From sequence record OQ718158.1: a DNA stretch of 64,000 bases; one strand, written 5' to 3'. Both the position numbers and the translations under genes were made by a program. The notes below the pieces were generated by a model, which saw only the letters and a program-made list of their open reading frames with translations, searched no databases and was not told the origin of the DNA. Each line of letters opens with the position of its first letter. Within the stretch, counting starts at the first letter, position 1. This document shows positions 59 to 50,595 of this stretch, one piece after another. The stretch is from Escherichia phage vB_Ec-M-J.

Positions 59-167
59 ATTTGTACAAATATAAAGCAATGTGACCTTTCCTTGATATAG
101 GTCAAGAGAAATACCCTGTTCTGACGCTATAATGGTGTCTGGTGATGTTAAATAACTTCACCCCCAG

Positions 168-2000
168 ATGATTTCAAAATACAAGGAAAGTAAAATGCAA
201 TTAGATAAATTATATACTGACGTAACAAATTTCCTAAATCAGAGCAATACTGATCTTACAAATGAAAATGCAAACAAAGATGCGAAATGCGTCAATACAC
301 ACAGGGATTTACTTGCTGGTATCCTATCTAAGCATTATTCACAAGATGTTATTCCAAAGGAGCTAATGCAGTGGCATAATGATGGTTATGGTCACATTCA
401 TGATTTAGACTACTATATCAGCCCATTAACTAACTGCTGCTTGGTTAACTACCCAGATATGCTAAAAAATGGATTTACCATTGGTTGTGCAAAAATTGAA
501 GAACCAAAGAGTTTTAGTGTAGCATGTACAGTACTGACACAAATTGTACAAGCTGTTGCTAGTTCCCAGTACGGTGGTCAATCGTTGGCTCATATCGACG
601 TGGGTCTTGAACCTTACGTCCAAAAGTCGTGGGATAAGCTATTAGCGAAGCAAAAGGCATATAATCTCAGTACTGAATACATTGAGGAAGAATTACGAAA
701 AGAAGTCTATGATGGGTGTCAAACCTTACTTTACCAGACAAATTCAATGATTAGTACAAATGGTCAAGCAGCATTCATTTCTCTTAGTTTGGGACTGAAT
801 ACTTCAAAATTTGGTAAATTAATCACTGAACAGTACTTAAAAGTACATGAGAATGGTTTAGGTAAAGATAAGATTACTCCTGTGTTTCCTAAAGTAATTT
901 TCTTTTTACAGGACGGAATCAACATGAATAGCGATGATTGCAACTATGACATGAAACAGTTGGCAATGCGTTGTGCATCGAAGAGAATCTACCCAGACTT
1001 CGTTTCTGTGCCGTTAAATCACAAAGTTACAGGAAGTGGCAGTACAGCAGTAACTCCGATGGGTTGTCGTTCATTTTTAGGAAAATGGGAAGATTCCAAT
1101 GGAAATGAGCAATATAACGGTCGTTTCAACTTAGGCGTAGTTTCTATCAATTTACCTCTAATTGCTCTTGAAAGTGCCTCAGATGGAGAGTTTTTTGATA
1201 AAATAGACGAGCATATGAATATTGCATATCGTGCTCAGATGAACCGTGTAGAGCGTTTAAAAGGCACAAAAGCGAAGCAGAATCCGATTTTGTTCATGGA
1301 AGGTGCACTTTCACGTTTAGGGGCAGAAGAAACGATTGACAAGCTATTTTATAACGGATATGCTAGTATTAGTATTGGTTACGTTGGTTTAGTTGAATGT
1401 TCAGAAATTCTGACTGGTTCTATCAGTAAGGAGTTCTGCATGTCAGTACTGAATTATATGAAAGTAAAATGCGATGAGTTCAAAAAAGAGAGTAATATAG
1501 CTTTTAGTCTATATGGAACCCCAGCAGAGTCACTTTGCTACAAATTTGCACGTTGCATCGAATCTAAATACCCTTCAGTACTAAAACGTGATTACATCAC
1601 AAATTCCTTCCACCAACCAGTATGGGTAGCAAGTTCACCATTTGATAAGTGGAGTTACGAAGAGGGTTTTGCTTACCTCAGTAATGGTGGAAACATCAGT
1701 TATGTTGAATCACCCAACCTAAGTAACAATATTCAAGCACTTGAGACTTTAGTCAATTACGCTTACACAAAGATCCCATATTTTGGTATCAACCAGCCAA
1801 TTGACCAGTGTTACGAGTGTGGGTATAAAGGTGAGTTCAGTGTAGATAAACACGGTTTTCATTGTCCAGTATGTGATAATCGCAATGAGAAGACAATCTC
1901 AGTGATTCGTCGTGTTTCTGGATATTTGGGGAACCCATCGTCTCGTGGATTCAACAAAGGCAAACAACAAGAATGTTGTGAGCGTATACAACACAAATAA
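168..2000 (+). CDS. nrdD: anaerobic ribonucleoside-triphosphate reductase (class III RNR)
   Basis: 610 aa; C-terminal Cys cluster (CYECG...CPVC) and glycyl-radical motif RVSGYLG; NrdG gene immediately downstream. Confidence 0.9.
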   Translation: MISKYKESKMQLDKLYTDVTNFLNQSNTDLTNENANKDAKCVNTHRDLLAGILSKHYSQDVIPKELMQWHNDGYGHIHDLDYYISPLTNCCLVNYPDMLKNGFTIGCAKIEEPKSFSVACTVLTQIVQAVASSQYGGQSLAHIDVGLEPYVQKSWDKLLAKQKAYNLSTEYIEEELRKEVYDGCQTLLYQTNSMISTNGQAAFISLSLGLNTSKFGKLITEQYLKVHENGLGKDKITPVFPKVIFFLQDGINMNSDDCNYDMKQLAMRCASKRIYPDFVSVPLNHKVTGSGSTAVTPMGCRSFLGKWEDSNGNEQYNGRFNLGVVSINLPLIALESASDGEFFDKIDEHMNIAYRAQMNRVERLKGTKAKQNPILFMEGALSRLGAEETIDKLFYNGYASISIGYVGLVECSEILTGSISKEFCMSVLNYMKVKCDEFKKESNIAFSLYGTPAESLCYKFARCIESKYPSVLKRDYITNSFHQPVWVASSPFDKWSYEEGFAYLSNGGNISYVESPNLSNNIQALETLVNYAYTKIPYFGINQPIDQCYECGYKGEFSVDKHGFHCPVCDNRNEKTISVIRRVSGYLGNPSSRGFNKGKQQECCERIQHK

Positions 2001-2008
2001 GGTACATT

Positions 2009-2335
2009 ATGGATTTAAAGCCAATTGTGGTTAACAAATATAAAGAACCGTATGATGTGTATATCGGGCGTGGGTCTAAATGGGGAAACCCATTTACCCA
2101 TATCAGTGATAAACAGACCAAAGCCGAGTTCATTGTTGCTACAAGGGAAGAATCAATCGAAAAGTTCAGAGAATACATTATTGAGCGTATTTCTAATGGA
2201 GAAGTTAAGATTGATGATTTACTTGAGTTAGCAGGGAAACGTCTTGGCTGTTTCTGTAAACCGAAATCATGTCATGGTGATGTTCTCGTTGAGATAGTGA
2301 GTGCAATATTAGATGAATTACCAGACGATAATTAA
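2009..2335 (+). CDS. conserved phage protein, DUF4326-like (CxC...CHGD motif)
   Basis: 108 aa; motifs YIGRGSKWGNPF and GCFCKPKSCHGD; sits between nrdD and nrdG. Confidence 0.5.
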   Translation: MDLKPIVVNKYKEPYDVYIGRGSKWGNPFTHISDKQTKAEFIVATREESIEKFREYIIERISNGEVKIDDLLELAGKRLGCFCKPKSCHGDVLVEIVSAILDELPDDN

Positions 2336-2783
2336 AGACGACCTTATTAATGGGGAGGGAGTAAGATGCTCCCTTTTTGTTAGTGGGTGCAGTCATGGAT
2401 GTGACGGATGCTTCAACGAAGAGGCATGGGATTATAGAAGTGGGCAAGAGTTCAGTACTGATACAATTGATACAATTTTAGCTGAACTCAGCAAACCGTA
2501 CATTAGTGGGTTATCACTCCTTGGTGGAGATCCTCTAATGAAAAAGAACATCGAAACAATTTTAGAGCTATGTAAAATTGTAAAAGAGACTTATCCCAAT
2601 AAAACTATTTGGTGCTGGAGTGGATATACTTTAGAAGAGATTATGGATAATCATGCTAAAGACATTCTTCAGTACTTAGATGTATTAGTTGATGGTAAAT
2701 TTGTTTCAGAAGAAAAGAATTTAACATTACCATTTCGTGGTTCAAATAACCAACGTATACTTTATAAAAATAAAAATTTTTAA
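2313..2783 (+). CDS. nrdG: anaerobic RNR activating enzyme (radical SAM)
   Basis: 156 aa; starts MNY like E. coli NrdG; CxxxCxxC radical-SAM motif CSHGCDGC; GGDPL motif. Confidence 0.9.
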   Translation: MNYQTIIKDDLINGEGVRCSLFVSGCSHGCDGCFNEEAWDYRSGQEFSTDTIDTILAELSKPYISGLSLLGGDPLMKKNIETILELCKIVKETYPNKTIWCWSGYTLEEIMDNHAKDILQYLDVLVDGKFVSEEKNLTLPFRGSNNQRILYKNKNF

Positions 2784-2785
2784 CA

Positions 2786-2816
2786 AAAAAGCACCCAAAT
2801 GGGTGCTTTGTCTATT
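2786..2816. terminator. bidirectional intrinsic terminator between convergent genes
   Basis: Hairpin gcaccc-aaat-gggtgc flanked by an A-run 5' and T-rich 3'. Confidence 0.6.
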
Positions 2817-4002
2817 TTGGTGTTTGTAACGTTACAAACGAACCAGTTAATGTATCAGAAGTTGGGTTTATACCAGTATACATAACACCATTACTTATTA
2901 CTATTGCAGTAAGGTTGTAAGACATTGAAATGAAATCATCAGAATCAGTTAGTGAATTTGGAATTAAACTAAATGTAAGTGTTGGATTTGGATTGGAACC
3001 CAAACGAGTTGTATAGTTTCCACCAGTTCCATATAAACCATCTGATTTTTTTATACCTATACCAAAATATCCTTCTGAATATACTGGATACAATTTATAA
3101 TCAGTTCCCATATCAAATGCAATCAAAGTTGGGTTTACAACGTTTCCTGATGCAGAAACACCATTACCCAAGTTACCAGCTATTCGGTTACCACATACCC
3201 ACATTTCATCAACCGATGTTGTAGTATTACGTAATACCATATATGTACCATAGTAAGAAACCATAATATCCGAAACGGTGTATGATGCTTTTGTATATTC
3301 TGTGAACGTTGTTAAGGCAGTTGTGTTACCCGTTCCAAGCTGCCCATTATTATTGATACCACATCGAAAAAGTGTATTATTATTTTTTAATATCCAAGTT
3401 CCATTATCAGCAGCTATACATATTTTTTTAACATCAGTACTAATTAATGTGAATTTAGTTACTGCTGATGTGTTTCCAGTTCCTAATGTACCATTAGCAT
3501 TTCTACCCATTCCGTAAGCTGAACCATCATTGAAATGTATAATTATATTATCCACCCAAACATGTATATCTTTTATATTATTGAGTTGTTCTTCTGTAAA
3601 TACACTAGAAAAGTAACTAGTTCTATCTACATAAACATTCGAGAATGATGACACACCCCCAAATGCATAAGTCGTGGTTGAGCATGATAAAAATTCATCA
3701 GTTTTCGTTTGTAATAATATAAATCGTCCAAAGGAACACCAAGCGTTTTTAACATTACTTCGGATAAGGGTCCAGGTAGTACGGTTAGTGCTTACATCAC
3801 CATCACCAAAAATATAATTTGAACCAGCACCACTACCACCACCACCACCAATTCCCCATAACTCACCATTATCATATAATATTATGATAGCAGAATAGTT
3901 GCTCGTTGTTGGTGTTAGTATTTTAGATATATTTGGTGTTGGAGCACGATTTCCGTACTTCACCATTCTTGCAAATGGAAGCATTTTAAGTCTCCTTATC
4001 AT
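2812..4002 (-). CDS. RCC1-like beta-propeller repeat protein
   Basis: 396 aa; repeated G-x-N-x-x-GQLGTGNT-type motifs (four or more); Gly-rich GGGGGSGAGS segment; only minus-strand gene in this plus-strand block. Confidence 0.5.
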   Translation of the reverse strand: MIRRLKMLPFARMVKYGNRAPTPNISKILTPTTSNYSAIIILYDNGELWGIGGGGGSGAGSNYIFGDGDVSTNRTTWTLIRSNVKNAWCSFGRFILLQTKTDEFLSCSTTTYAFGGVSSFSNVYVDRTSYFSSVFTEEQLNNIKDIHVWVDNIIIHFNDGSAYGMGRNANGTLGTGNTSAVTKFTLISTDVKKICIAADNGTWILKNNNTLFRCGINNNGQLGTGNTTALTTFTEYTKASYTVSDIMVSYYGTYMVLRNTTTSVDEMWVCGNRIAGNLGNGVSASGNVVNPTLIAFDMGTDYKLYPVYSEGYFGIGIKKSDGLYGTGGNYTTRLGSNPNPTLTFSLIPNSLTDSDDFISMSYNLTAIVISNGVMYTGINPTSDTLTGSFVTLQTPK

Positions 4003-4051
4003 TATTATATAGTATATTTATGCAACTTTCCTTTAGTTCGCTTTTAGTAAC

Positions 4052-4063
4052 CTCTAATAAATA
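4052..4063 (+). promoter_or_regulatory. late-promoter-like motif CTCTAATAAATA
   Basis: About 33 nt upstream of the 4097 start; same motif class recurs at 13894-13904 and 29867-29877. Confidence 0.35.
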
Positions 4064-4096
4064 CAGTAACTAATATCTAAATTACAAGGGATATGT

Positions 4097-6793
4097 ATGT
4101 CAAAGAAAATATATGGTGGCTTAGACGTCACTCATAATGTGACAGTTAAAGGGAAAAGAACAGTACAGGGCATCAATGAACAAGTATTTGATGCTAATGG
4201 TAATATGGAAATTGATACATATTCCAAAGAAGAATTACTTGATGTAATTAGTTTACTTCCAATCTCGCATTATGGTACACATAACTATCTACCTGCTGGG
4301 GTATCTGGTGATTTTAATGGTGCATCAGAAAACCAATCCCAACGTAGAAACAAAATACTTTTAGAAAACGATGGCACATTAGTACTATTACGTAGTGGTA
4401 CAAACGGTAGTGTTGAAGGTTTATTTTATTCTTACCTAGCGAACGCATTATCCGTTACCGATATGAGCCGTACTGTTAATACAAGCCGTCAGTATAAGCC
4501 TGGCTATTTTGGGGCAAACCGTGTTGCTATTGGTTTATACAATACCGATTCAAAAATACTGTTAGGTCGTTACAATGACACATCTACCAATACTAATGGG
4601 TTGTTTATATCAGTAACGAATGGTACATTGGATGATACTCAACATAGTGGTCTTTTTGTGAACCAAGCTGATATTTCACCTGAAGGTGGGATTGAGTATG
4701 CTATGATGGCAGAAGACGGTTCAGTTTATGTATTCAACGTCCTTAATGAAAATAACAAACTACAGATTGTTGTTGTTCGTGTTGTATTGAATATTGCAAA
4801 CGGTACTTATACTGCTACCCGAATCACGGGGTGGACAACAAAAACTTTTTACAATACTACATATACTGCTCAGAATAATATGATCATTACTGACCATGTT
4901 AACTCAACTAATATTGCTGATAAGCCCTATGTCTATGTACCACAAAATTTGGCTGGTATGGGGATTTATATGACATCTATCGATTTATATGTTGCTCAGG
5001 AGCCAGGAACGCAGAACTTCCGATTCAGAATGAATGGTGACGCATGGTTCACTATGGCAAACTACAATACCCGACCACAGCATAGTTATAGTTTCAATTT
5101 TAACATGAGTACTAAACAATGTAACTTGGATAATGGGAACGATATTGGTACATTTGCTGCACCATTTGTTGTTACAAACACAGGTTCGGCATTGGTTGCT
5201 ACTGGTAATGTTCTCAACAACGATCCGTTATATGACCATAGCGGTGCAAGAAACATTTACAGTTCATATTATTATTTGAATACAGGTGAAGTATTCTGTA
5301 CTGCATGTCCAAACTTAGCAGAACCATTACTTATGCAGAAAGCTAAATTTACTGCACAATCAATATATAGCATGATTAATGTACGTGCGAACATTTCAAC
5401 TGATTTCAGAAATGGCATAGTTCGTCCTTCATTTGGTTCAGCAGTTGGTTCTTTTATTAACGGCGTAGAATTGCTTCCAGGGAACAGTACTAAACAGTAT
5501 TCTCGTTCAACTGGTTCTGGTGCATTCCGTCCATCTTATGCAGTTCATAAAAGTACTCCTAACTTTACGTTTAATTCTTTATCACGTGGAACCATACAAG
5601 GTTATGAGCCAACAACAGAACGTGCTAATGTGACAGATAACACGAACAACAGAGTTTTTATTAGTTCCATTAGTGGTAATAATGTTACTACAAATGGTGG
5701 GATATTCATGGTAGGTCAGAGATATTCCCAATCACTATCATATGATAAAAATATGAACGGAACTGGTATCATTAGTGTTACTCAATCTGTACTTGATAAT
5801 TTCAGAAATGCTGAATACGCCAAAGTACTAAGCGACTGGAACTTATCTTCTGCTGCTTATAAAGATATGACATTGTTTGTTCCACAACAAACTGATATAC
5901 CTGCATTCGTAATGCTAAGTACAGTTACAAATACATATCAGAACTATATTAGAATTGCTGAAGTGAATGTGAATACACGTTCAGGTAATATCACTACAAT
6001 TACCTTCAAGCGTTTAGTACTAGAAAACGTTTACGGAAGTAACTTTACACCAAATGGTAATGGTAGTTTTGCATTGTCTTCTGTTGGTTTAACAATATAT
6101 GATGGTGGTTCTTTCTACTTCATAGGTGGTTCTGACCCATTATCTCACCCAACTATTGGTAATACAAACACACACCAATTCAGAGCATATGTAACAAAAG
6201 CAACTGCACAATTTGATAGTTTTATTATCAGTGGTTCACATGCAAGTTATGAGCAAGGTATTCAACCAGCAGCTTTACCTGGTATTGGTTTTGGTTATTT
6301 CCAAGCAATAGACTATGTAAACAAAATGACTTTCCAAAAATGTGGTACTACAATTGCTGATTATAATAACTGGACTGCTCAAGGTGCACCGATTAACGTA
6401 GTTTCACAAGACGTTGCTCAAGGTTTTATTGTGTACTTCACAGAAGAAACTCCAGTAATTCTTTCTGGTAAAGCATTTACATTACCGATTACTAGTATAA
6501 ACTTAACTACAGTTAAGGCTAATCCAGCAAACACATTATTTCATGTATATGTTAAAATGGAACAAGGTAATGCAAAATATGTAATAACAACTGATGTTAT
6601 TTCAGAGACTGGTACTACAGCATATAATATTTTCTGGATAGGTACTATACAAACAAACTCACTACAAATATCAAATGTTAACATACAAAAACGTTCAAGA
6701 TTGGATATTTTCGGTGCGTCACTTGAAGCTGCTGGTTCTTCATTCCCAGTTAGTTATGGTCTACCGTCACAAACAGGAACAATCAATTGGTAA
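4097..6793 (+). CDS. putative tail fibre / receptor-binding protein, paralog A
   Basis: 898 aa; paralogous to 7410..10139 (shared LLRSGTNGS and FIVYFTEE blocks); C-terminal module SFPVS.G.P.QTGT..W also in 6806..7393. Confidence 0.5.
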   Translation: MSKKIYGGLDVTHNVTVKGKRTVQGINEQVFDANGNMEIDTYSKEELLDVISLLPISHYGTHNYLPAGVSGDFNGASENQSQRRNKILLENDGTLVLLRSGTNGSVEGLFYSYLANALSVTDMSRTVNTSRQYKPGYFGANRVAIGLYNTDSKILLGRYNDTSTNTNGLFISVTNGTLDDTQHSGLFVNQADISPEGGIEYAMMAEDGSVYVFNVLNENNKLQIVVVRVVLNIANGTYTATRITGWTTKTFYNTTYTAQNNMIITDHVNSTNIADKPYVYVPQNLAGMGIYMTSIDLYVAQEPGTQNFRFRMNGDAWFTMANYNTRPQHSYSFNFNMSTKQCNLDNGNDIGTFAAPFVVTNTGSALVATGNVLNNDPLYDHSGARNIYSSYYYLNTGEVFCTACPNLAEPLLMQKAKFTAQSIYSMINVRANISTDFRNGIVRPSFGSAVGSFINGVELLPGNSTKQYSRSTGSGAFRPSYAVHKSTPNFTFNSLSRGTIQGYEPTTERANVTDNTNNRVFISSISGNNVTTNGGIFMVGQRYSQSLSYDKNMNGTGIISVTQSVLDNFRNAEYAKVLSDWNLSSAAYKDMTLFVPQQTDIPAFVMLSTVTNTYQNYIRIAEVNVNTRSGNITTITFKRLVLENVYGSNFTPNGNGSFALSSVGLTIYDGGSFYFIGGSDPLSHPTIGNTNTHQFRAYVTKATAQFDSFIISGSHASYEQGIQPAALPGIGFGYFQAIDYVNKMTFQKCGTTIADYNNWTAQGAPINVVSQDVAQGFIVYFTEETPVILSGKAFTLPITSINLTTVKANPANTLFHVYVKMEQGNAKYVITTDVISETGTTAYNIFWIGTIQTNSLQISNVNIQKRSRLDIFGASLEAAGSSFPVSYGLPSQTGTINW

Positions 6794-14617: not shown

Positions 14618-15229
14618 ATGTCAAAATATCAGGTCTACTATGTTGCCAAACTATCACTTCTTGATGAGTTAAATCAAAGAAGTACACAGATGAAACGCTA
14701 TACATATAACGGTGTTACTTTCCGATACTTCCCACAAAAAGTACTTACATTCGTTAAGAATTGTAAATGCGTTGCGTGTGGTATTGAAGCTACTGAAGTT
14801 CGCATTGAGCGTTCACATAGCACTGATCCGGTATATGGTAAACCTCACTTAAATGTCTATGCAGTTTGTGGTCTATATGAAGTACTGATGACAGTAGATC
14901 ATAACCAACTAGCATCTAAGGGTGGACCTGATTTAGAGTCAAATTACAACACAATGTGTTCACGTTGTAACAGTCTTCGTTCTAATAAAACTGAATCAGT
15001 AGGTGAATTCCTGGAAAAAGTTAAGGGTAGAAATCTACTGGAAGAGCATATGAATGATTTTTTCAATAAAGATAAGAAGAAATCTAAAACTCCTACTCCA
15101 GAAGAATTGGAAGAACGCCGTTTACGTACAGAACTATGGGAAACCGACCATATATGGCATGTTCGTGATTTTGGACGACATATGAAAGCTCTAAAAAAAG
15201 AACAAAAGAAATTGAATAATCACAATTAA
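14618..15229 (+). CDS. HNH endonuclease (free-standing homing-endonuclease-like)
   Basis: 203 aa; CxxC...DHNQLASKGG...N...CSRCN HNH motif; basic C-terminal tail. Confidence 0.7.
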   Translation: MSKYQVYYVAKLSLLDELNQRSTQMKRYTYNGVTFRYFPQKVLTFVKNCKCVACGIEATEVRIERSHSTDPVYGKPHLNVYAVCGLYEVLMTVDHNQLASKGGPDLESNYNTMCSRCNSLRSNKTESVGEFLEKVKGRNLLEEHMNDFFNKDKKKSKTPTPEELEERRLRTELWETDHIWHVRDFGRHMKALKKEQKKLNNHN

Positions 15230-15283: not shown

Positions 15284-15640
15284 ATGAAATCTAAAATCTT
15301 TTTACCGCAGTTAATGTGGCATCTGGCAGAGTTAGATGAAGATGATGAATATACTGACTATGGTACATGGGATGACAGTACTGAATCATTCAATCCAGAT
15401 GTTAAGTACAAAATCATTAGTAATGAAAGTAAAGGGTATAGACGATGGACAGAAGAATTTGATCTAGTTTTTCTTGACATGAACACGAACAAATATTATC
15501 ATTGTACGTATGAACGAGGTTTAACAGAAGATAGACCAGCAGAACCATTCAGAAATGAAACTGATGGTGTTAAGTGCTATGAAGTTTCTGTTACCAGAGA
15601 AGAAATTATCACTTATCGAACTTTGTGGAAATATTTGTAA
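15284..15640 (+). CDS. hypothetical protein
   Basis: 118 aa ORF. Confidence 0.5.
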   Translation: MKSKIFLPQLMWHLAELDEDDEYTDYGTWDDSTESFNPDVKYKIISNESKGYRRWTEEFDLVFLDMNTNKYYHCTYERGLTEDRPAEPFRNETDGVKCYEVSVTREEIITYRTLWKYL

Positions 15641-16038
15641 TGCTAAAAGAATTAGATTTTTCAAACTTAGAAATCATCAGTGCTGTTAAAAATATCTCTG
15701 ACTTTGGAGATGAGAAGTCAGTACTGGTAACTGTTACATTCGTCAAAGAACAGGATAGCTATAGCCATTTAGATGGTATTGAAGAACTAATTCACAAGAC
15801 TAATCTACAAAACGATGGTAAACTCATTAAGCTTCAGGCTTCCTATACGCAAAAATCGTCATTTTTTGTAGACCTAAATAATGTAGTCAAGGTGGTATAC
15901 AATCACCCTGAACACAAATACAGGAACACGACAAGAAACGAGAATGATGCTATAGACTCCAATATCAAAGAGGATGTCGAATTCATCAACACAATTTTTG
16001 ACCGTTGTTCCAAGGATTTGAAAAAGGTATACATGTAA
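15640..16038 (+). CDS. hypothetical protein
   Basis: Start set at the ATG overlapping the upstream stop (TAATG); track start 15625 overlaps the upstream gene. Confidence 0.5.
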   Translation: MLKELDFSNLEIISAVKNISDFGDEKSVLVTVTFVKEQDSYSHLDGIEELIHKTNLQNDGKLIKLQASYTQKSSFFVDLNNVVKVVYNHPEHKYRNTTRNENDAIDSNIKEDVEFINTIFDRCSKDLKKVYM

Positions 16039-16058
16039 CGGGACATAATACATCCTAG

Positions 16059-16067
16059 TGATATAAT
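16059..16067 (+). promoter_or_regulatory. extended -10 promoter element (TGaTATAAT)
   Basis: tgatataat at 16059-16067 heading the gene-free locus; no good -35. Confidence 0.4.
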
Positions 16068-16356
16068 GTATATTGTAAAATGACAACGGACATTGAAAAA
16101 TGGATAATGAGAACCTACTTCTCTTGAAAATGTAAAGGATAGATGAGCTTTACCGTTGTAGCGAACAGCAAAAGAAACCTGTTAGAGTACTGGCAATCAA
16201 ACAAACACGAGATAAGACCACGAATCACGGCGACACGGCTGTATAAAGAACTCCAATAAGCACACAGAGAGTTCCTAGATAGATGTATAAGGTTCGCACC
16301 TTACGAATTTGCTAAGGGAGTTCAAGGATTGTGGACGCGATTTTACAAGAAAGTTG

Positions 16357-16373
16357 CGTCCAAAATTTGAGAA
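16357..16373 (+). repeat. direct repeat copy 1 (cgtccaaaatttgagaa)
   Basis: Perfect 17-nt repeat with copy 2 at 16510-16526, within longer imperfect repeat of about 40 nt. Confidence 0.8.
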
Positions 16374-16509
16374 CAGGTACTACTTTGATCGAATAGAGTT
16401 TAGTACTGAGTGCTGTTGATGAAAAGACCAGCGACCGTTGCATATGACTGCGATAGAGAGAAACCGAGCAACCCGCTTTCGCTCTCTAAATTTTGGTACA
16501 GGAAAGATC

Positions 16510-16526
16510 CGTCCAAAATTTGAGAA
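16510..16526 (+). repeat. direct repeat copy 2 (cgtccaaaatttgagaa)
   Basis: Identical to 16357-16373; preceded by inverted repeat aaattttgg/ccaaaattt (9-bp stem). Confidence 0.8.
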
Positions 16527-16565
16527 ATTCGCAATTCGATAATATCCGATGCCATCATCGTCAAG

Positions 16566-16588
16566 AGAGACTTAATTGTCTCTTTTTT
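16566..16588 (+). terminator. intrinsic terminator
   Basis: agagac-ttaatt-gtctct followed by a T-run. Confidence 0.5.
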
Positions 16589-16594
16589 ATTACC

Positions 16595-16618
16595 TTCATT
16601 CCCCTGCGGGGGGATGAA
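16595..16618 (+). other. stable 10-bp hairpin with UGCG (UNCG-type) tetraloop
   Basis: ttcattcccc-tgcg-gggggatgaa; nine Watson-Crick pairs plus one G-U; no U-tract, so not a terminator. Confidence 0.5.
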
Positions 16619-16728
16619 ATAGTCCTCAACAAATCCCGTCAAGCTTTTAAAGTACATTATCATTTTCAGAAGGAACTAGTTTACGAAGTAAACGTAGTGA
16701 CTTCTTGAGTTACGAGAGAACGAAGTGA

Positions 16729-17157
16729 ATGAGTAACACAACGAAAATATCCAATACATCTGAATTAACACAAATGTTATTCAAAGAATATTTTGAGTAT
16801 CAAATCAAAAGCGATCATGATTTGGTTCAGACATATTTGAAGAGAATCAAAGATCCATTAAGTTTAAACAAAGGAACTGAATTTTATAACAGTATTTTAG
16901 ACTTTATTAATTTAGTTCATACAAACAGACCTATTGTAGTTTTCTTCTTTGATAAATCAATTCCTGTAGAAGTTCCTGATAATGTATTTTTTGTTACAGA
17001 AACTGATTTAAGTAATCAAAGTACTGTAAGTAGATTAAGGAATTGCTTACTTATAATTTGTGATTCTTCATTATATAACAATAGAGTACTATGGAATAGA
17101 AGTAAGAGAAATGCAGTTTCAGAAATGAATCCTGAAGTTACCTTTATTATTAACTAA
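16729..17157 (+). CDS. hypothetical protein
   Basis: 142 aa ORF. Confidence 0.5.
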   Translation: MSNTTKISNTSELTQMLFKEYFEYQIKSDHDLVQTYLKRIKDPLSLNKGTEFYNSILDFINLVHTNRPIVVFFFDKSIPVEVPDNVFFVTETDLSNQSTVSRLRNCLLIICDSSLYNNRVLWNRSKRNAVSEMNPEVTFIIN

Positions 17158-17187
17158 ATACCATAGAATAACTCTAAGGAGAGATTT

Positions 17188-17628
17188 ATGGAAAATATTA
17201 ATGATTTACGACATGTAATGGACTTTATCGGAGATACTGAAGAAGATAGTTCTTATGATGAAGTACTACTTACATTTATTGAGAATAGTTTATTTTTAAG
17301 TGCTGCTGCTCACAACTGGCATTTACAGAGCCATTTCTACACTAAGCACCTACAATTGGATGAACTATACAAAGAGTTACCTGAGTACGTTGATGCATTT
17401 GTAGAGGGTATTATGAACACTCGCGGGGCATTGCAGGTAGGTACTGGTAACAGTTATCGTTTTACCCCTATCGAGGATTGTGTACCAATTCTTGAAGAAT
17501 ATGTTAGTCAATGTAAAGCCATTCATGCTATGCTAGAAGAGGCTGAAGACTATGGTAGTACTAACACGCTAGAAGACATTATGAGTTTTTGTGAAGGAAT
17601 GCTTTACAAACTTAAAGTTTTACAATAA
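17188..17628 (+). CDS. hypothetical protein (possible ferritin/Dps-like four-helix bundle, tentative)
   Basis: 146 aa; HNWHLQSHFYTKHLQLDELYKEL loosely resembles Dps/ferritin helix motifs; RBS aaggagag upstream. Confidence 0.5.
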   Translation: MENINDLRHVMDFIGDTEEDSSYDEVLLTFIENSLFLSAAAHNWHLQSHFYTKHLQLDELYKELPEYVDAFVEGIMNTRGALQVGTGNSYRFTPIEDCVPILEEYVSQCKAIHAMLEEAEDYGSTNTLEDIMSFCEGMLYKLKVLQ

Positions 17629-17635
17629 AATATAT

Positions 17636-17666
17636 GGAGAGTCATTGTGACTCTCCTTTTCTTTTG
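17636..17666 (+). terminator. intrinsic terminator
   Basis: ggagagtca-ttg-tgactctcc followed by ttttctttt. Confidence 0.65.
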
Positions 17667-17674
17667 GAGAATAT

Positions 17675-18028
17675 ATGAGTGATTACCGCGTAACATCTGG
17701 ACTAATGGCACGTCTTATTGAAGCAGTTCCTGAAGATGATTATGAAGCTATTTCAGATCGTCTTTTTGACGCAGATTCTAAACTCCATATTACATATGAT
17801 GGTGCATTGATTTACAGTACTGATATTGATATGTCTAGTTATGAATTTGATATTTCTTTTGGTAACAAACTAACTACTGAAGAATTCGCTCGAAAATGTG
17901 AGCGTGAAGGGTTGTGTATTGATATTAGTTCAGTTCAGCCATATACATCACTGTGGTATGATGGTGCTGATAGTCCAATGTCTACTACATCTTTACAGGA
18001 TTTTCTAAATGCAAATCAAAAAGATTAA
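17675..18028 (+). CDS. hypothetical protein
   Basis: 117 aa ORF. Confidence 0.5.
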   Translation: MSDYRVTSGLMARLIEAVPEDDYEAISDRLFDADSKLHITYDGALIYSTDIDMSSYEFDISFGNKLTTEEFARKCEREGLCIDISSVQPYTSLWYDGADSPMSTTSLQDFLNANQKD

Positions 18029-18401
18029 ATTCCACCAGCATTGTTCTATACATGAATGTGATGATTGTGGTATGAACATGAGTGACATTTATACAGTTTC
18101 CTGTAAAGGATTCAAATTCACTCACGGTGAACCTGCATATTGTTATGGCACAGAAGAAGGTGATATCGAAGTAGTTCTGAAAGAATTGTTCCAGTACTTG
18201 CAAAGTGCTGGTCATGATGTTACAATGCCCACATATTACGAAGATGATTATGACTCACATGTAGAAGAAAATACATATTATAATCAATTCGTTCATGGTA
18301 ATGGCTTTATCACATACCTTCATGAGAATGGTATTGAGGTAAAAACTAAGTACACTAGTGATGATTACGAAAGTGATGACTCTATGGAGATTGAAGATTG
18401 A
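18009..18401 (+). CDS. hypothetical Cys-containing acidic protein
   Basis: 130 aa; several Cys/His near the N-terminus, acidic C-terminus. Confidence 0.45.
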   Translation: MQIKKIKFHQHCSIHECDDCGMNMSDIYTVSCKGFKFTHGEPAYCYGTEEGDIEVVLKELFQYLQSAGHDVTMPTYYEDDYDSHVEENTYYNQFVHGNGFITYLHENGIEVKTKYTSDDYESDDSMEIED

Positions 18402-18985
18402 AAGCAAAAGACCTAGCAGCACTGTTGATGCAGAACCCTGAAATGGAAGTGTATCATGAGCACATGCATATTGATGATATGTGTGAATCGTACTATTCAC
18501 CAGAAAATGTGTCTGGGATTGAAATCACACCAAGTGGTGTATTCATCAGTACTGAACGTATTGATTACAATTCCCAGCAAGAAATCAAAACTCCACATAA
18601 TAAACCTCGCATTGGTGCTATTGAACTTGTATTTCAACAGGATCGTCTGGTTGAGTACAACGAAGACGATGGTACTACCAGAACTGATGTTGAGAATGTT
18701 GTTTTTCCTTTTTATAACGCCTATGATGACCCAACAACAGGTGAAGACTTCTTCCGTGAGTTATCAGAGGATGGTTATGTTTATGGTGAAAATGGAACTA
18801 TTTTTGTACTGGACCCTAATTATGAGCCAGATCACAACACTTGGCAATTCTATACACCTCAAGATGTAATGGAAGTTAAAGTACTTACAGATCTTGACGA
18901 TAATTGGAACCCAGTATATACTTCAATGACATTTGAAGAAGCAAAAAACCATTTCGTTTCTAAACTAAACATTACAAAAGAATAA
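18398..18985 (+). CDS. hypothetical protein
   Basis: 195 aa; 4-nt overlap with upstream ORF. Confidence 0.5.
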   Translation: MKAKDLAALLMQNPEMEVYHEHMHIDDMCESYYSPENVSGIEITPSGVFISTERIDYNSQQEIKTPHNKPRIGAIELVFQQDRLVEYNEDDGTTRTDVENVVFPFYNAYDDPTTGEDFFRELSEDGYVYGENGTIFVLDPNYEPDHNTWQFYTPQDVMEVKVLTDLDDNWNPVYTSMTFEEAKNHFVSKLNITKE

Positions 18986-18989
18986 GGAT

Positions 18990-46117: not shown

Positions 46118-46140
46118 CAGCGGGACAGCTTGGAAAAAGG

Positions 46141-46149
46141 TGATATAAT
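46141..46149 (+). promoter_or_regulatory. extended -10 element (TGaTATAAT)
   Basis: tgatataat at 46141-46149. Confidence 0.35.
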
Positions 46150-47075: not shown

Positions 47076-47672
47076 ATGAATAAAATAGAATTAGATGAAG
47101 CAATCAATGGTTTATCTAATGTATGTTTCAGTGGCGGGGCAGCAGGTGCTGACCGCCTTTTTTCTATCTATGCAAAAGACAATGGATTTGAAGTAATAAA
47201 TTTTTCATTCAAGGGTCACCAAAGCAGCGTAGATGAAAATACTATATTAGAAATTCCACCCAATATCCTTTGTGATAGTTCAATATTAAAACAATTAAAC
47301 ATTGCATGTTACTCTTTACGCCGTAAAGTTCCTAAGCCTGGTTCGTATGTATATAACTTACTTGCAAGGAATAGTTACCAGATACTTAATACAAAAAGAG
47401 TATATTGTATTGCAAATATTACATCACCTACGCAAGTTTCAGGTGGAACTGCATGGGCCGTACAGATGTATATGGATTCAGTTGACAATCCAGAAATATA
47501 TTGTTATGATATGAACACTCGCTCTGTATTTTATTATGATACAGTACTGAAAGAGTTTACTGAAACATTCTCAATACCAGCACCACACGGTAACTGGACT
47601 GGGATTGGTTCACGTAATGCTACACAAAAACACATGGAACACTTTATTACATTTTTCAAGGACGTAAAATGA
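47076..47672 (+). CDS. hypothetical protein (possible SLOG/DprA-like Rossmann fold, tentative)
   Basis: 198 aa; Gly-rich CFSGGAAGADRLF motif near the N-terminus. Confidence 0.45.
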   Translation: MNKIELDEAINGLSNVCFSGGAAGADRLFSIYAKDNGFEVINFSFKGHQSSVDENTILEIPPNILCDSSILKQLNIACYSLRRKVPKPGSYVYNLLARNSYQILNTKRVYCIANITSPTQVSGGTAWAVQMYMDSVDNPEIYCYDMNTRSVFYYDTVLKEFTETFSIPAPHGNWTGIGSRNATQKHMEHFITFFKDVK

Positions 47673-48598
47673 AACAACTACAAGAACTATATCAAAGAAT
47701 TCTGGATCAAGGTGTCGAAAGCGTTGATCGTACTGGTGTTGGCACTATCAAGCTAATCGGACAACAAATGCGTTTTGACCTAAAAGAAGGTTTCCCAGCA
47801 GTAACTACTAAACGTTTGGCTTGGAAAGCAATGACTTCAGAATTGTTATGGTTTATTGAAGGTTCTCACGATGAGCGTCGTCTGTGTGAAATTTTACACG
47901 GGACACGTGATGTAGAAAAGAAAACAATTTGGACAGACAACTACCTTAATCAAGGTGTAAGCCTTGGTTATTCTGATGGTGAGCTTGGCCCAGTTTATGG
48001 TAAACAATGGCGTGAATGGGAAGATTATAAATTCAGTTCCAGTACTGAAGAAATTCAAGAACTAAAAGATAAAGGGTATAAAGTTATTGATTATACTGGT
48101 TCACATGGTGTTATTATGCGTCGTGTAACTGACCAGCTAAAACAAGTTATTGAAGGTATCAATACTGATCCATACGGTCGTCGTCACATTCTAAGTGCAT
48201 GGAACGTTGGTGAGCTTGATGCTATGACTTTGCCACCCTGTCATAGCTTTGTGCAGTTTTGTGTTGTACAGGGTAAACTAAGTTGTATTCTTCATCAACG
48301 TAGTGCTGATCTATTCCTTGGTGTGCCATTTAATATTAGTAGTTACTCACTACTAACTCATATGATTGCACAAATTACAGGGTTAGATGTTGGTGAATTT
48401 ATTTGGAATGGTGGCGACTGCCATATCTACCAAAACCATATTGAACAAGTAAAAGAGCAACTCCAACGTGAACCACGTACATTACCAGAATTATGGCTAG
48501 ATCCTACTATTACTGATATTGAAGATTTCACTATGGATTCTTTCAAATTAGTTAATTACGATCCAATGCCAACAATCAAAGCACCAATGGCTGTATAA
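47669..48598 (+). CDS. td: thymidylate synthase
   Basis: 309 aa; PPCHSFVQF, LHQRSADLFLGVPFNISSYSLLTHM and C-terminal KAPMAV; Asn retained in PFNIS (not dCMP hydroxymethylase). Confidence 0.85.
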   Translation: MKQLQELYQRILDQGVESVDRTGVGTIKLIGQQMRFDLKEGFPAVTTKRLAWKAMTSELLWFIEGSHDERRLCEILHGTRDVEKKTIWTDNYLNQGVSLGYSDGELGPVYGKQWREWEDYKFSSSTEEIQELKDKGYKVIDYTGSHGVIMRRVTDQLKQVIEGINTDPYGRRHILSAWNVGELDAMTLPPCHSFVQFCVVQGKLSCILHQRSADLFLGVPFNISSYSLLTHMIAQITGLDVGEFIWNGGDCHIYQNHIEQVKEQLQREPRTLPELWLDPTITDIEDFTMDSFKLVNYDPMPTIKAPMAV

Positions 48599-48602
48599 AA
48601 GA

Positions 48603-48630
48603 AAAGGGAGACTTATGTCTCCCTTTTTTA
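48603..48630. terminator. bidirectional intrinsic terminator between convergent genes
   Basis: gggagac-ttat-gtctccc flanked by A-rich 5' and T-rich 3'. Confidence 0.65.
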
Positions 48631-50595
48631 TTATCTTAATGTAACCAGTGTACGTCCGGCAAATCTCACATCAGGAGTTGCAGGAATACTGAACACTACG
48701 CTTGTTCCATTGAATGTGACACTATCAACTTCAACACGAGTGTAAACACCAGTACTTACGAGTTCTTGAATTTCAGCAGTTACTATGTTACTAGCAGTTA
48801 CTGTTAATGTGTAATATGAGCCGTTTAAAACCCACGCTGACGCAGTAAACGGGTCAGTACGTACAGAACCAGAACCAATTGGAACCCATTGTCCTTGGAC
48901 CTTCTGCATCGATGTACGTTCGGTATTTGAGTATGCAATCATACCATCAACACCAACTGAGTTATCAATTGTAGCCAGTACTGGTAATTGAATACCATAT
49001 CGGTTGAAACGAGTACGAATAACACCGTTATCATATATACTTACATCAGCATAACTTCCCATAGTGAAACGTAAGTCTGCACCAAGTAGTTTTATATCAC
49101 TTTGGTTTGTAGTACTTTCTAATGTGAATACACCATTCTCTAGTAAGTTTATGTTTTTGAATTTGTTATTAGTTCCATTGAAATTAGTATTTGCATTATA
49201 AGTACTAACACCATTAACTGTAATAGTGTCACCAGTAGTGTCACCTAGTGTTGTATTACCTTTAACAACTAAATTCCCGCTGGCATTGATGTTACCTGCG
49301 TTTAAATCACCAGTTAGTGATGTTGAACCATCTACAATAATATTTCCATGAAAATGTGATTCACCATTTTTAAATTCAACTTGAACTTTATTCATTGAAC
49401 TTAAAGAAATAATATTACTACTTGCACTTATCCCTACGTTTGTGTTTGATGCATTATCAAAACGTATTACTGGCGTAGCTGCTGGTGTAGCGGTAGTTTG
49501 GAATAATGTTAATGTTCCATTATTAATTCTAACACGCTCAGTTCCGGCTGTTGTAAAACCAATTGCATCATCTGCTGGATGGAATATACCAGTATTAGCA
49601 TCGGACCACTTAGTTGGGTCATTACCTGGGTTGTTCGTTGGGTCAAACGGATTATTATTAAATGTCAATGCTGGTGCTGCTGCACTGCCATACACCACCC
49701 CAAAACGCCCAGAGCCGTCTGTTCCATCATTATACATGGAATCGCCAGTTCTACGTAAACACTCAATCACAACGTTATCTATGGATGTTTGAACGGTCCC
49801 TGCGTTTGTTCTAAATTGGCGATGATTTGCAATCATTACAGTATTGTCATATAATACTGAAGCAGCGGAAATGCTTGTTCTTGACTGACGAAGACGTATA
49901 TTCTTATCTTCAGTTATAATAATCCAATCACCATCTGAAAGTGCAGTTTGGTTCATTGGAACACCAGATGCAAATGGTTTGGTCAAGTCAGTATCTGTTG
50001 CTAAATTTTCAAGGCCATCATGTCCAGTACTGGGAATAGATGCAGTAATAATTCTAGCAAAAGCGTATGTTACTAGTTTAGCACCAGATATATTTGGATT
50101 AGAGTCAACATAATATAAAATTTCAATCCAATTACCTTGTCCAGTTGGATTTGTAGGTGTAAATGTAACAGGACTTGTTTGTGGATTATTTGCTTCATAA
50201 TGTGCTTGTGCTGCATCCATTATACCACGAACGACATAATAATCACCATTAAGCGATGGTGATGGTGCTGGTAGTGGAGTTTGTGCTAAAGGTGGATCGA
50301 TATCATCTGGGATGGGATTATATGTACCAACAAATTGTAAACCACTAGTTACTGAATCTGGTAATTGGGAAGTAAGAAGTTTACCGTTTGCATCTAGGTT
50401 TGCAAAACGTCGATATGCCATTGAACCATCTTCAAAGTCTAGTACACCTTCAAATGCTTTCCATCCTTTATTGTATCTAATCATCCCTGATCTAACCACA
50501 TCAGCGGTTTCTTTAGTCGGTGCTTTAGGTAATTCTAGAAATGCCTGACTATCTATAATTACACCACCATCACCTCTAATTCGATTTATACTCAT
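48631..50595 (-). CDS. putative tail fibre protein
   Basis: 654 aa; Gly/Asn/Thr-rich central repeats. Confidence 0.5.
   Translation of the reverse strand: MSINRIRGDGGVIIDSQAFLELPKAPTKETADVVRSGMIRYNKGWKAFEGVLDFEDGSMAYRRFANLDANGKLLTSQLPDSVTSGLQFVGTYNPIPDDIDPPLAQTPLPAPSPSLNGDYYVVRGIMDAAQAHYEANNPQTSPVTFTPTNPTGQGNWIEILYYVDSNPNISGAKLVTYAFARIITASIPSTGHDGLENLATDTDLTKPFASGVPMNQTALSDGDWIIITEDKNIRLRQSRTSISAASVLYDNTVMIANHRQFRTNAGTVQTSIDNVVIECLRRTGDSMYNDGTDGSGRFGVVYGSAAAPALTFNNNPFDPTNNPGNDPTKWSDANTGIFHPADDAIGFTTAGTERVRINNGTLTLFQTTATPAATPVIRFDNASNTNVGISASSNIISLSSMNKVQVEFKNGESHFHGNIIVDGSTSLTGDLNAGNINASGNLVVKGNTTLGDTTGDTITVNGVSTYNANTNFNGTNNKFKNINLLENGVFTLESTTNQSDIKLLGADLRFTMGSYADVSIYDNGVIRTRFNRYGIQLPVLATIDNSVGVDGMIAYSNTERTSMQKVQGQWVPIGSGSVRTDPFTASAWVLNGSYYTLTVTASNIVTAEIQELVSTGVYTRVEVDSVTFNGTSVVFSIPATPDVRFAGRTLVTLR

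Follow-up and report, generated by a model that had tools for sequence, protein, structure and literature searches.

The window analysed here is a stretch of 64,000 nucleotides (nt) from Escherichia phage vB_Ec-M-J (OQ718158.1), part of an Asteriusvirus-type jumbo phage genome, and the subject of this report is the locus at 16039-16728, a 690-bp gap between two open reading frames (ORFs; 15625-16038 on the left, 16729-17157 on the right). The gap is best read, with a probability of roughly 0.6, as the gene for a large, multi-domain, pseudoknotted non-coding RNA which would act in trans, would be expressed with the DNA-synthesis genes and matches no family in Rfam 15. It represents a previously undescribed class of large structured RNA, carried by culturable coliphages and, unexpectedly, by chromosomal islands as well. 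A novel phage RNA was one of the readings offered in an earlier note on this DNA; it is strongly supported by a conserved promoter, a terminator in most lineages, covarying pseudoknotted helices and the lack of a match in Rfam.

The window is 99.8% identical to Escherichia phages Turkey3, EC.P1, Ecwhy_1 and fEgEco12, and 94-97% identical to 121Q. The features listed in the earlier note were all found where it had placed them. The gap is free of genes except for a single plus-strand ORF of at least 60 amino acids (aa), 16493-16708 (71 aa), and its GC content is raised (0.39-0.43 over 16050-16650, 0.26-0.36 in the flanks). The extended -10, the intrinsic terminator and the 10-bp UGCG tail hairpin were recovered at the coordinates given in Table 1. 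The direct repeat spans 16344-16373 and 16497-16526 with 90% identity over 30 nt, both copies ending in the same exact 17-mer (16357-16373 and 16510-16526), and ARAGORN detected no tRNA or tmRNA in the window, in line with what had been judged by eye. The observation is far above chance, because only 16110-16656 aligns with distant genera and because the helices show extensive compensatory substitution.

Conservation and fold of the RNA

A 1.6-kb query was compared with distant Rak2-like genera and aligned only over ~16110-16656, at 66-71% identity; the flanking genes had no DNA match. The phages aligned were GAP32, CBB, XbC2, fHe-Yen9-04, BF, 7t3, Munch, Kaldavass, Hallingskeid, EJP2 and K64-1/RaK2. 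The element always lies in a gene-free gap in these phages, in at least three different gene contexts.

An alignment of 68 non-identical members (phage paralogues, metagenome contigs and nine bacterial loci) was made with MAFFT, and a structure of 72 base pairs in 16 helices was derived from a covariation scan and tested against 500 shuffles and slid controls. Under the proposed structure 92.2% of the cells were paired, as against 77.8% in the shuffles, none of which reached the observed value, and 39-45% in the slid controls. Changes on both sides were seen in 53 of the 72 pairs (shuffled mean 39.7; slid 22-25) and in 709 cells (shuffled mean 213; slid 68-97), with a covariation score of 0.42 (shuffled 0.17; slid 0.05-0.10). 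RNAalifold, run without the proposed structure as input, returned the same helices, with 50 pairs, 33 of them compensatory. The check proposed in the earlier note, covariation or conservation in related phages, thus came out in favor of a folded RNA: the helices are kept by compensatory change across the 68 homologues. G.U cells outnumber A.C cells in this alignment (215 versus 118), which is consistent with a fold of the plus strand, in the direction of the promoter.

The helices fall into a 5' domain (16083..16162), a central domain (16165..16323) and a 3' domain (16412..16540), with coordinates and support listed in Table 1. Helices P3, M and A cross other helices and are therefore pseudoknots. 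The loop strand of pseudoknot A, and with it the partner strand, differs by paralogue (AUCGAAU, AUUGUAU, GUCAUAU or UUCAUGU). Helix L occurs as GUUC/GAAC here, as GCCA-GAAA-UGGC in GAP32 and as GUUCAA/UUGAAC in 7t3; hairpin R1 is missing from the GAP32/CBB lineage and found in others. Several stretches are unpaired yet invariant or nearly so, namely GAAAAUGUA, GAUAGA, AAGGGAG, GACCGUUGC and the 15-nt loop AAACNGNGCAACCCG. The direct repeat corresponds to a recurring hairpin module with the loop (U)ACAAUAUAGAU or ACARGAAAG, a closing ...GUCC and then AAAAUUUGA, present zero to two times per member. Two mini-ORFs had been reported to share the ending ...SKI through the repeat; the repeat does encode it, but the cause of the shared ending is the recurring RNA hairpin module and not a peptide. 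A further candidate helix, T0 (16547-51/16556-60), was rejected as unsupported, its middle pairs being broken in most members, and an alignment-free search for the loop-strand pseudoknot was too permissive to use.

The cmscan comparison with Rfam that the earlier note had suggested was run and matched no known family. At gathering thresholds Rfam 15, which includes RNase P, tmRNA, 6S, group I/II introns, GOLLD, ROOL, OLE and HEARO, gave no match in the whole window. With permissive filters over 15900-16850 it gave noise only (E >=0.7), none of it over the core, and nothing was obtained over the core in nine paralogue or orthologue loci and four bacterial loci. Some short A/G-rich motifs resemble conserved regions of RNase P by eye, but their order is reversed, and the resemblance was dismissed. 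No prior description of an RNA at the locus was found in the full-text literature, including the papers on CBB, fEgEco12 and PA5oct. Two RNAs of the related Pseudomonas jumbo phage PA5oct defined by RNA-seq, lncRNA002 and lncRNA004, were considered as homologues and gave no nhmmer match. PA5oct lncRNA004 (MK797984, 517-1135 of the excerpt) ends in a similar C-rich/G-rich hairpin, an AT-rich stretch and a long hairpin, a 3' layout which may be analogous to the tail region described below.

Promoter, predicted transcript and 3' end

The promoter layout is conserved across the family: a TGRRAYR element, 13-14 nt, and TGnTATAAT. The upstream element is at the same position in nearly all 68 members, bacterial islands included, and reads CGGGACA here, TGAAACG in GAP32 and CBB and TGAAAYR in the islands. 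It matches the 'TGAAACG' -35 class reported for phages CBB and GAP32; in the CBB genome paper this is a divergent RpoD-like promoter class concentrated ahead of DNA-synthesis genes (PMC5259590). Two further promoters of this form, (T)GGGACA-N14-TGATATAAT, are present in the window. That at 27115-27143 precedes a NUDIX / glutaredoxin-like / macro-like operon, and that at 46122-46149 precedes an operon ending in thymidylate synthase (47669-48598), the functions being read from the translations. Together with the RNA gene, these two promoters likely mark a DNA-metabolism regulon with a non-sigma-70 upstream element. Because its promoter type is also theirs, the RNA is probably expressed in one temporal class with the genes for nucleotide metabolism and DNA synthesis. 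The extended -10 could also act with host sigma-70 alone.

The transcript body is covered by one nhmmer match (E = 2e-158), the sole match in the window, which thus holds a single copy of the element. The terminator hairpin directly precedes UUUUUU on the transcribed strand, and was not listed by the consensus scanner. Its stem covaries with pairing kept (GAGAC/GUCUC, GUACAC/GUGUAC, GAUCC/GGGUC). Hairpin and U-run are found in most phage copies; the hairpin is missing in several clades. Both neighboring genes are on the other strand in BF, 7t3 and Munch, and this orientation of the RNA, together with its own promoter and terminator, indicates an independent transcription unit.

Beyond the terminator, the tail hairpin is present in all members (86% paired, with many G.U pairs on the plus strand) and is the only such site in the window. 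It is followed in every member by the motif CCUCAACAAAYCYCGUCA and then by an AT-rich stretch. For the CCUCAACAAAUCCCGUCAAG motif at 16624-16643 no pairing partner was established. Within 170 nt of the tail a GAACGNAGUGA-type loop occurs in 49 of 67 members; 33 of those 49 have at least five of the six flanking positions paired, 17 different stems being represented, as against 5% in a shuffled control. Of the AACGNAGTGA motif there are two copies at the downstream module and one more in the rest of the 64 kb. RNAalifold also proposes pairing of GAUAGA (~16278-16283) with the CGUCA motif (~16638-16640; alignment columns 363-368/865-867). These columns are almost invariant and lie beyond the reach of covariation; if the pairing is real, the tail would be part of the folded RNA.

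A self-similarity scan of the window gave only the internal repeat and short promoter- or terminator-like matches, the other paralogues falling outside the 64 kb. Short matches to parts of the element include a terminator-like match at 48604-48640 (81% over 37 nt), between the thymidylate synthase gene and a convergent 654-aa ORF, and a 21-nt copy of the -10 region at 19458-19478 (95%). About 0.8 kb upstream of the RNA gene, in Asteriusvirus only, is an ORF (14618-15229) for an HNH endonuclease, the function given to it in the 121Q annotation (gene 513).

Table 1. Features of the RNA locus, with positions in the 64,000-nt window
Feature	Position	Strand	Remarks
Upstream promoter element CGGGACA	16039..16045	+	family consensus TGRRAYR, 13-14 nt ahead of the TG of the extended -10
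Extended -10 TGaTATAAT (TGATATAAT)	16059..16067	+	near-invariant in family alignments
Predicted primary transcript, ~515 nt (body ~510 nt)	16075..16589	+	putative start ~7 nt past the -10, putative end at terminator U-run
P1	16083-89/16153-59	+	5' domain; 76-85% paired, alignment-limited, covaries clearly by eye
P1.1, GAAA loop	16091-94/16099-102	+	5' domain
P2, conserved loop GAAAAUGUA	16115-17/16140-42, 16120-21/16138-39, 16123-25/16135-37	+	95.9% paired, 7/8 pairs compensatory
Pseudoknot P3	16147-49/16160-62	+	100% paired, 2/3 pairs compensatory
P4	16165-69/16238-42	+	central domain; 98.5% paired
P5, around variable insert	16179-82/16227-30	+	96.6% paired
Pseudoknot M	16233-35/16284-86	+	97% paired
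Hairpin K	16248-53/16269-74	+	central domain
Invariant GAUAGA and AAGGGAG	16278-83 and 16314-20	+	central domain
Hairpin N	16289-92/16299-302	+	central domain
Helix L	16320-23/16371-74	+	by eye in three lineages; misaligned by MAFFT
Hairpin R1, lineage-variable insertion, holds repeat copy 1 (16344-16373)	16326..16368	+	-19.0 kcal/mol, z = -5.05
Hairpin B	16377-81/16402-06, 16382-86/16395-99	+	spans 16377..16406
Pseudoknot A, hairpin B loop AUCGAAU with 3' strand	16388-94/16534-40	+	98.9% paired, 7/7 pairs compensatory
Hairpin F	16412-15/16429-32	+	3' domain
Invariant GACCGUUGC	16433-41	+	3' domain
Helix C	16449-53/16529-33	+	98.8% paired
Hairpin D, near-invariant 15-nt loop AAACCGAGCAACCCG	16456-60/16476-80	+	100% paired
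Helix E, encloses hairpin R2	16483-85/16523-25	+	98.9% paired
Hairpin R2, repeat copy 2 at 16497-16526	16487-16522	+	-12.3 kcal/mol, z = -3.6
Intrinsic terminator, stem 16566-71/16578-83, loop UUAAUU, U-run	16566..16589	+	-10.8 kcal/mol, z = -4.1
Tail hairpin, 10 bp, UGCG loop, CCCC/GGGG core	16595..16618	+	-16.9 kcal/mol, z = -4.0
Motif CCUCAACAAAUCCCGUCAAG after tail hairpin	16624..16643	+	AAAYCYCGUCA near-invariant in phage and island members
Downstream hairpin, AAACGUAGUG loop	16685-89/16700-04	+	within module 16685..16728
Second AACGAAGUGA copy	16719-28	+	abuts ATG of next ORF

Copies in phages and in bacterial islands

Four queries, each a different paralogue, found 61-71 records each among 50,697 phage records, and among the matches listed all were Rak2-like jumbo phages. 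An invariant 16-mer occurs three times in 121Q, and these loci are full-length paralogues of the same architecture. Turkey3, the closest complete genome, has copies at 61.9 kb, 196.2 kb and, corresponding to that in the window, 111.7 kb; a fourth copy was found in the near-identical phage TH47 (E = 3.5e-130), and other genomes have two to four full-length copies each. By sequence comparison the element in the window is one of four diverged paralogues in its phage lineage. One copy is syntenic across genera, between the endonuclease VII / gp46-47 genes and the baseplate hub gene, and the duplications are therefore old. A scan of viral contigs with the 16-mer also matched unrelated integrase genes, which were discarded by nhmmer, and the pattern GACCGTTGCANNTGAC was dropped as too unspecific.

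A 24-base pattern matched nine bacterial genome contigs and 59 metagenome loci. All nine bacterial matches are full-length family members: seven are from named Enterobacterales (Buttiauxella, Silvania, Citrobacter, two Serratia, Enterobacter and isolate RIT714), and the other two are from metagenome-assembled genomes (MAGs), one of an uncultured Enterobacteriaceae and one labelled Clostridium. Although only ~60% identical to the window, the island copies still have 86-100% of the pairs, and they retain the phage-type TGRRAYR promoter. The copies lie in AT-rich segments next to an integrase, which is a large serine or a tyrosine recombinase depending on the island, and are usually accompanied by a cI-like S24 repressor, a Ner-like regulator and a conserved membrane protein. 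The island proteins that were compared with jumbo phages had no homologue there, and no shared protein was found. No match to the element was found in the plasmid collection, and no island was found as a small viral contig in IMG/VR.

The island of E. coli LR-29-1 (NZ_AP027515, 3,472.9-3,483.7 kb; excerpt 15880-26581) is 10.68 kb long, lies between direct repeats of 24 bp at the 3' end of ffs and has a GC content of 39%, compared with ~50-53% around it. It encodes mSLOG-DUF4326, DUF488 and DuOB proteins, a resolvase and a tyrosine integrase disrupted by IS3; the mSLOG-DUF4326, DUF488 and DuOB cluster may be a conflict or defence system. The island is present in only two of 5,426 complete E. 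coli genomes. In Serratia fonticola (NZ_CP183218, excerpt 61-5490) the same RNA lies in a different type of island, with a large serine recombinase and two ParB/RepB-like proteins; at the island junction next to tilS the rof gene is duplicated (4775-5038 and 5227-5490).

Hypothetical proteins are annotated over the RNA in many GenBank records, on varying strands, among them gene 516 of 121Q and up to four in other records, for example WPEC5, SD-2_S15 and 7t3. These annotations are probably spurious calls. In the window an 87-aa minus-strand ORF (16400-16663) overlaps the RNA.

Possible functions and known systems

If the gap is an RNA gene, its transcription would belong to the temporal class of the nucleotide-metabolism and DNA-synthesis genes, and the transcript would end mostly at the terminator to give an RNA of ~0.5 kb. 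The RNA would work in trans in its folded form, whether as a scaffold, as an RNA-protein particle or as an assembly of RNA only, after the manner of other large 'ornate' RNAs associated with phages. As the phages and the islands were not found to have a protein in common, a protein specific to the phage would be a less likely partner than a host component or the RNA itself; pseudoknot A, being specific to each paralogue, would suit self-recognition if it formed between molecules, which is speculation.

Several points weigh against this explanation. The transcript ends are predicted from sequence, and RNA-seq data for a Rak2-like phage were not found in the searchable literature. The variable regions are imperfectly aligned by MAFFT, and fewer lineages support helices L, R1, R2 and B. 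Conservation and co-inheritance extend over the ~140 nt past the terminator, which hold the tail hairpin, the CGUCA motif and the GAACGNAGUGA hairpin, and the terminator is missing in several clades, so that the functional unit may exceed the terminated RNA or include a DNA-level element. Read-through transcripts may be of importance, or the 3' portion may be an element of its own, at the level of RNA or of DNA. Finally, the dispersed copies, the DNA-synthesis-class promoter and the copy beside recombination genes fit a replication origin equally well.

A structured origin or pre-primer RNA acting in cis is the main rival, possible though clearly the less probable explanation, with each copy serving as a replication origin of the 350-kb genome. 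The promoter would fire with the DNA-synthesis genes; the folded transcript, or read-through of a leaky terminator, might then form a persistent RNA-DNA hybrid at the G-rich hairpin and the AT-rich stretch downstream and prime the leading strand, in the way of T4 oriF/oriG or ColE1, and islands with a copy might be amplified on infection by a jumbo phage. The earlier note had considered an origin-like element, and several observations would fit one: there are up to four dispersed full-length copies per genome, comparable to the at least five origins of T4 (PMC3016281), the promoter is of the class ahead of DNA-synthesis genes, and the copy next to the endonuclease VII / gp46-47 genes is syntenic. 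[quoted passage not shown] In all lineages the terminator position is followed by a conserved hairpin, then an AT-rich stretch and another hairpin (the GAACGNAGUGA-type loop in 49/67), and no replication gene was seen in the examined parts of the islands. The proposal fits less well in that T4 origins have no sequence motifs in common and do not need a structured RNA (PMC3016281), whereas here a pseudoknotted fold of 500 nt with invariant loops is strongly selected, and in that most phage copies have an intrinsic terminator ahead of the downstream elements. Neither iterons nor DnaA-type boxes were seen, the GC skew keeps its sign at the locus, and there is no sign of excision, amplification or packaging of the islands, in keeping with the IMG/VR result. 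Less probable again is a conflict element, in which the phage RNA would neutralise a host defence or commandeer a host machine and the island copy, inducible by phage, would be a decoy or sensor by which the island interferes with infecting jumbo phages. The phage-type promoter and the fold are retained in the islands, many islands carry the cI-like repressor, the Ner-like regulator and the conserved membrane protein, the island proteins tested lack jumbo-phage homologues, and the presumed defence-type domains of the LR-29-1 island would fit such a role. This support is purely from context, and the conserved synteny of paralogues across genera suggests a core phage function, not an arms-race accessory.

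A riboswitch-like or attenuator leader acting in cis on the downstream gene (16729-17157) would account for the next ORF being on the same strand, for the terminator between RNA and ORF and for the AACGAAGUGA motif that abuts the start codon. It is very unlikely, as other paralogues and orthologues have unrelated or opposite-strand neighbors, the island copies converge on the repressor gene, and ~510 nt exceeds the riboswitch classes known to us. Translation of the 38-, 37-, 34- and 13-aa mini-ORFs or of the 71-aa ORF, as a small-peptide cassette or a decayed gene, is the least credible of all, although several of the ORFs have plausible starts, the invariant AAGGGAG looks like a Shine-Dalgarno sequence and hypothetical proteins are annotated over the region in some GenBank records. 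The 38-, 36-, 37-, 34-, 13- and 71-aa ORFs keep start, frame and freedom from stops in only 2-6 of 68 homologues, all from near-identical phages, and the cassette of tiny peptides suggested in the earlier note is thereby refuted. Indel lengths among the homologues are not multiples of three, substitutions are compensatory in helices and not synonymous, and the annotated ORFs vary in strand and position between records.

A trans-acting RNA expressed with the DNA-synthesis genes is thus the preferred explanation. A more specific proposal, unlikely and put forward tentatively, is a phage-specific RNA module (origin or primer RNA, or self-assembling particle) that would be activated through TGRRAYR by a jumbo-phage factor and would have been captured with its promoter by Enterobacterales islands, such that an infecting phage turns on or amplifies the island. 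If true, this would define islands or satellites of a new type, responsive to phage and organised around an RNA gene in place of shared proteins. To our knowledge, only a handful of large, intricately folded bacterial or phage RNAs of unknown function have been described (OLE, GOLLD, ROOL, raiA and a few others). Each new class of this kind has opened new biology. The RNA described here is present in culturable coliphages (121Q, PBECO4, phAPEC6 and the close relatives of the window) and in two sequenced E. coli strains, which makes genetic and biochemical study feasible. Its combination of ancient paralogues in each genome, a paralogue-specific pseudoknot, a DNA-synthesis promoter and a second home in islands is unusual, and may bear on how replication of 350-kb genomes starts or on how islands sense jumbo phages.

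GOLLD and ROOL (PMC12286853, PMC5737381) resemble the RNA described here in being several hundred nt long, with many helices, pseudoknots and invariant unpaired stretches, in being carried by phages or prophage-like elements and in being free-standing genes without a known partner protein. With more than 400 nt, multiple pseudoknots, invariant unpaired nucleotides and a location on phages and mobile elements, the RNA falls among the 'ornate' RNAs, a likeness of kind only and not of homology. The Rfam models of GOLLD and ROOL match it neither in sequence nor in structure. Its hosts are Enterobacterales jumbo phages, whereas GOLLD and ROOL are from Firmicutes and from rumen or lake metagenomes. 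Unlike them, it occurs in several diverged paralogues per genome, and it differs from their setting in that the 64-kb window has no tRNA genes. The ColE1 RNA II pre-primer is comparable as an RNA of ~0.5 kb whose fold matters. With T4 oriF and oriG (PMC3016281) the element has in common a replication-class promoter, an AT-rich stretch downstream and several sites per genome, and the islands would be explained if it, like those origins, conferred replication on foreign DNA. In contrast to T4 origins, which have no conserved sequence or RNA structure (PMC3016281), the element is conserved and has a terminator ahead of the AT-rich stretch. Three times larger than phi29 pRNA, unrelated to it in sequence and with no link to packaging genes seen, the RNA is nevertheless, like it, a phage-encoded structured RNA. 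In phi29 pRNA a short loop-to-loop pairing covaries and sets the specificity of assembly. Helix A of the RNA described here (7 bp, 16388-94/16534-40) similarly covaries at every position and differs between paralogues.

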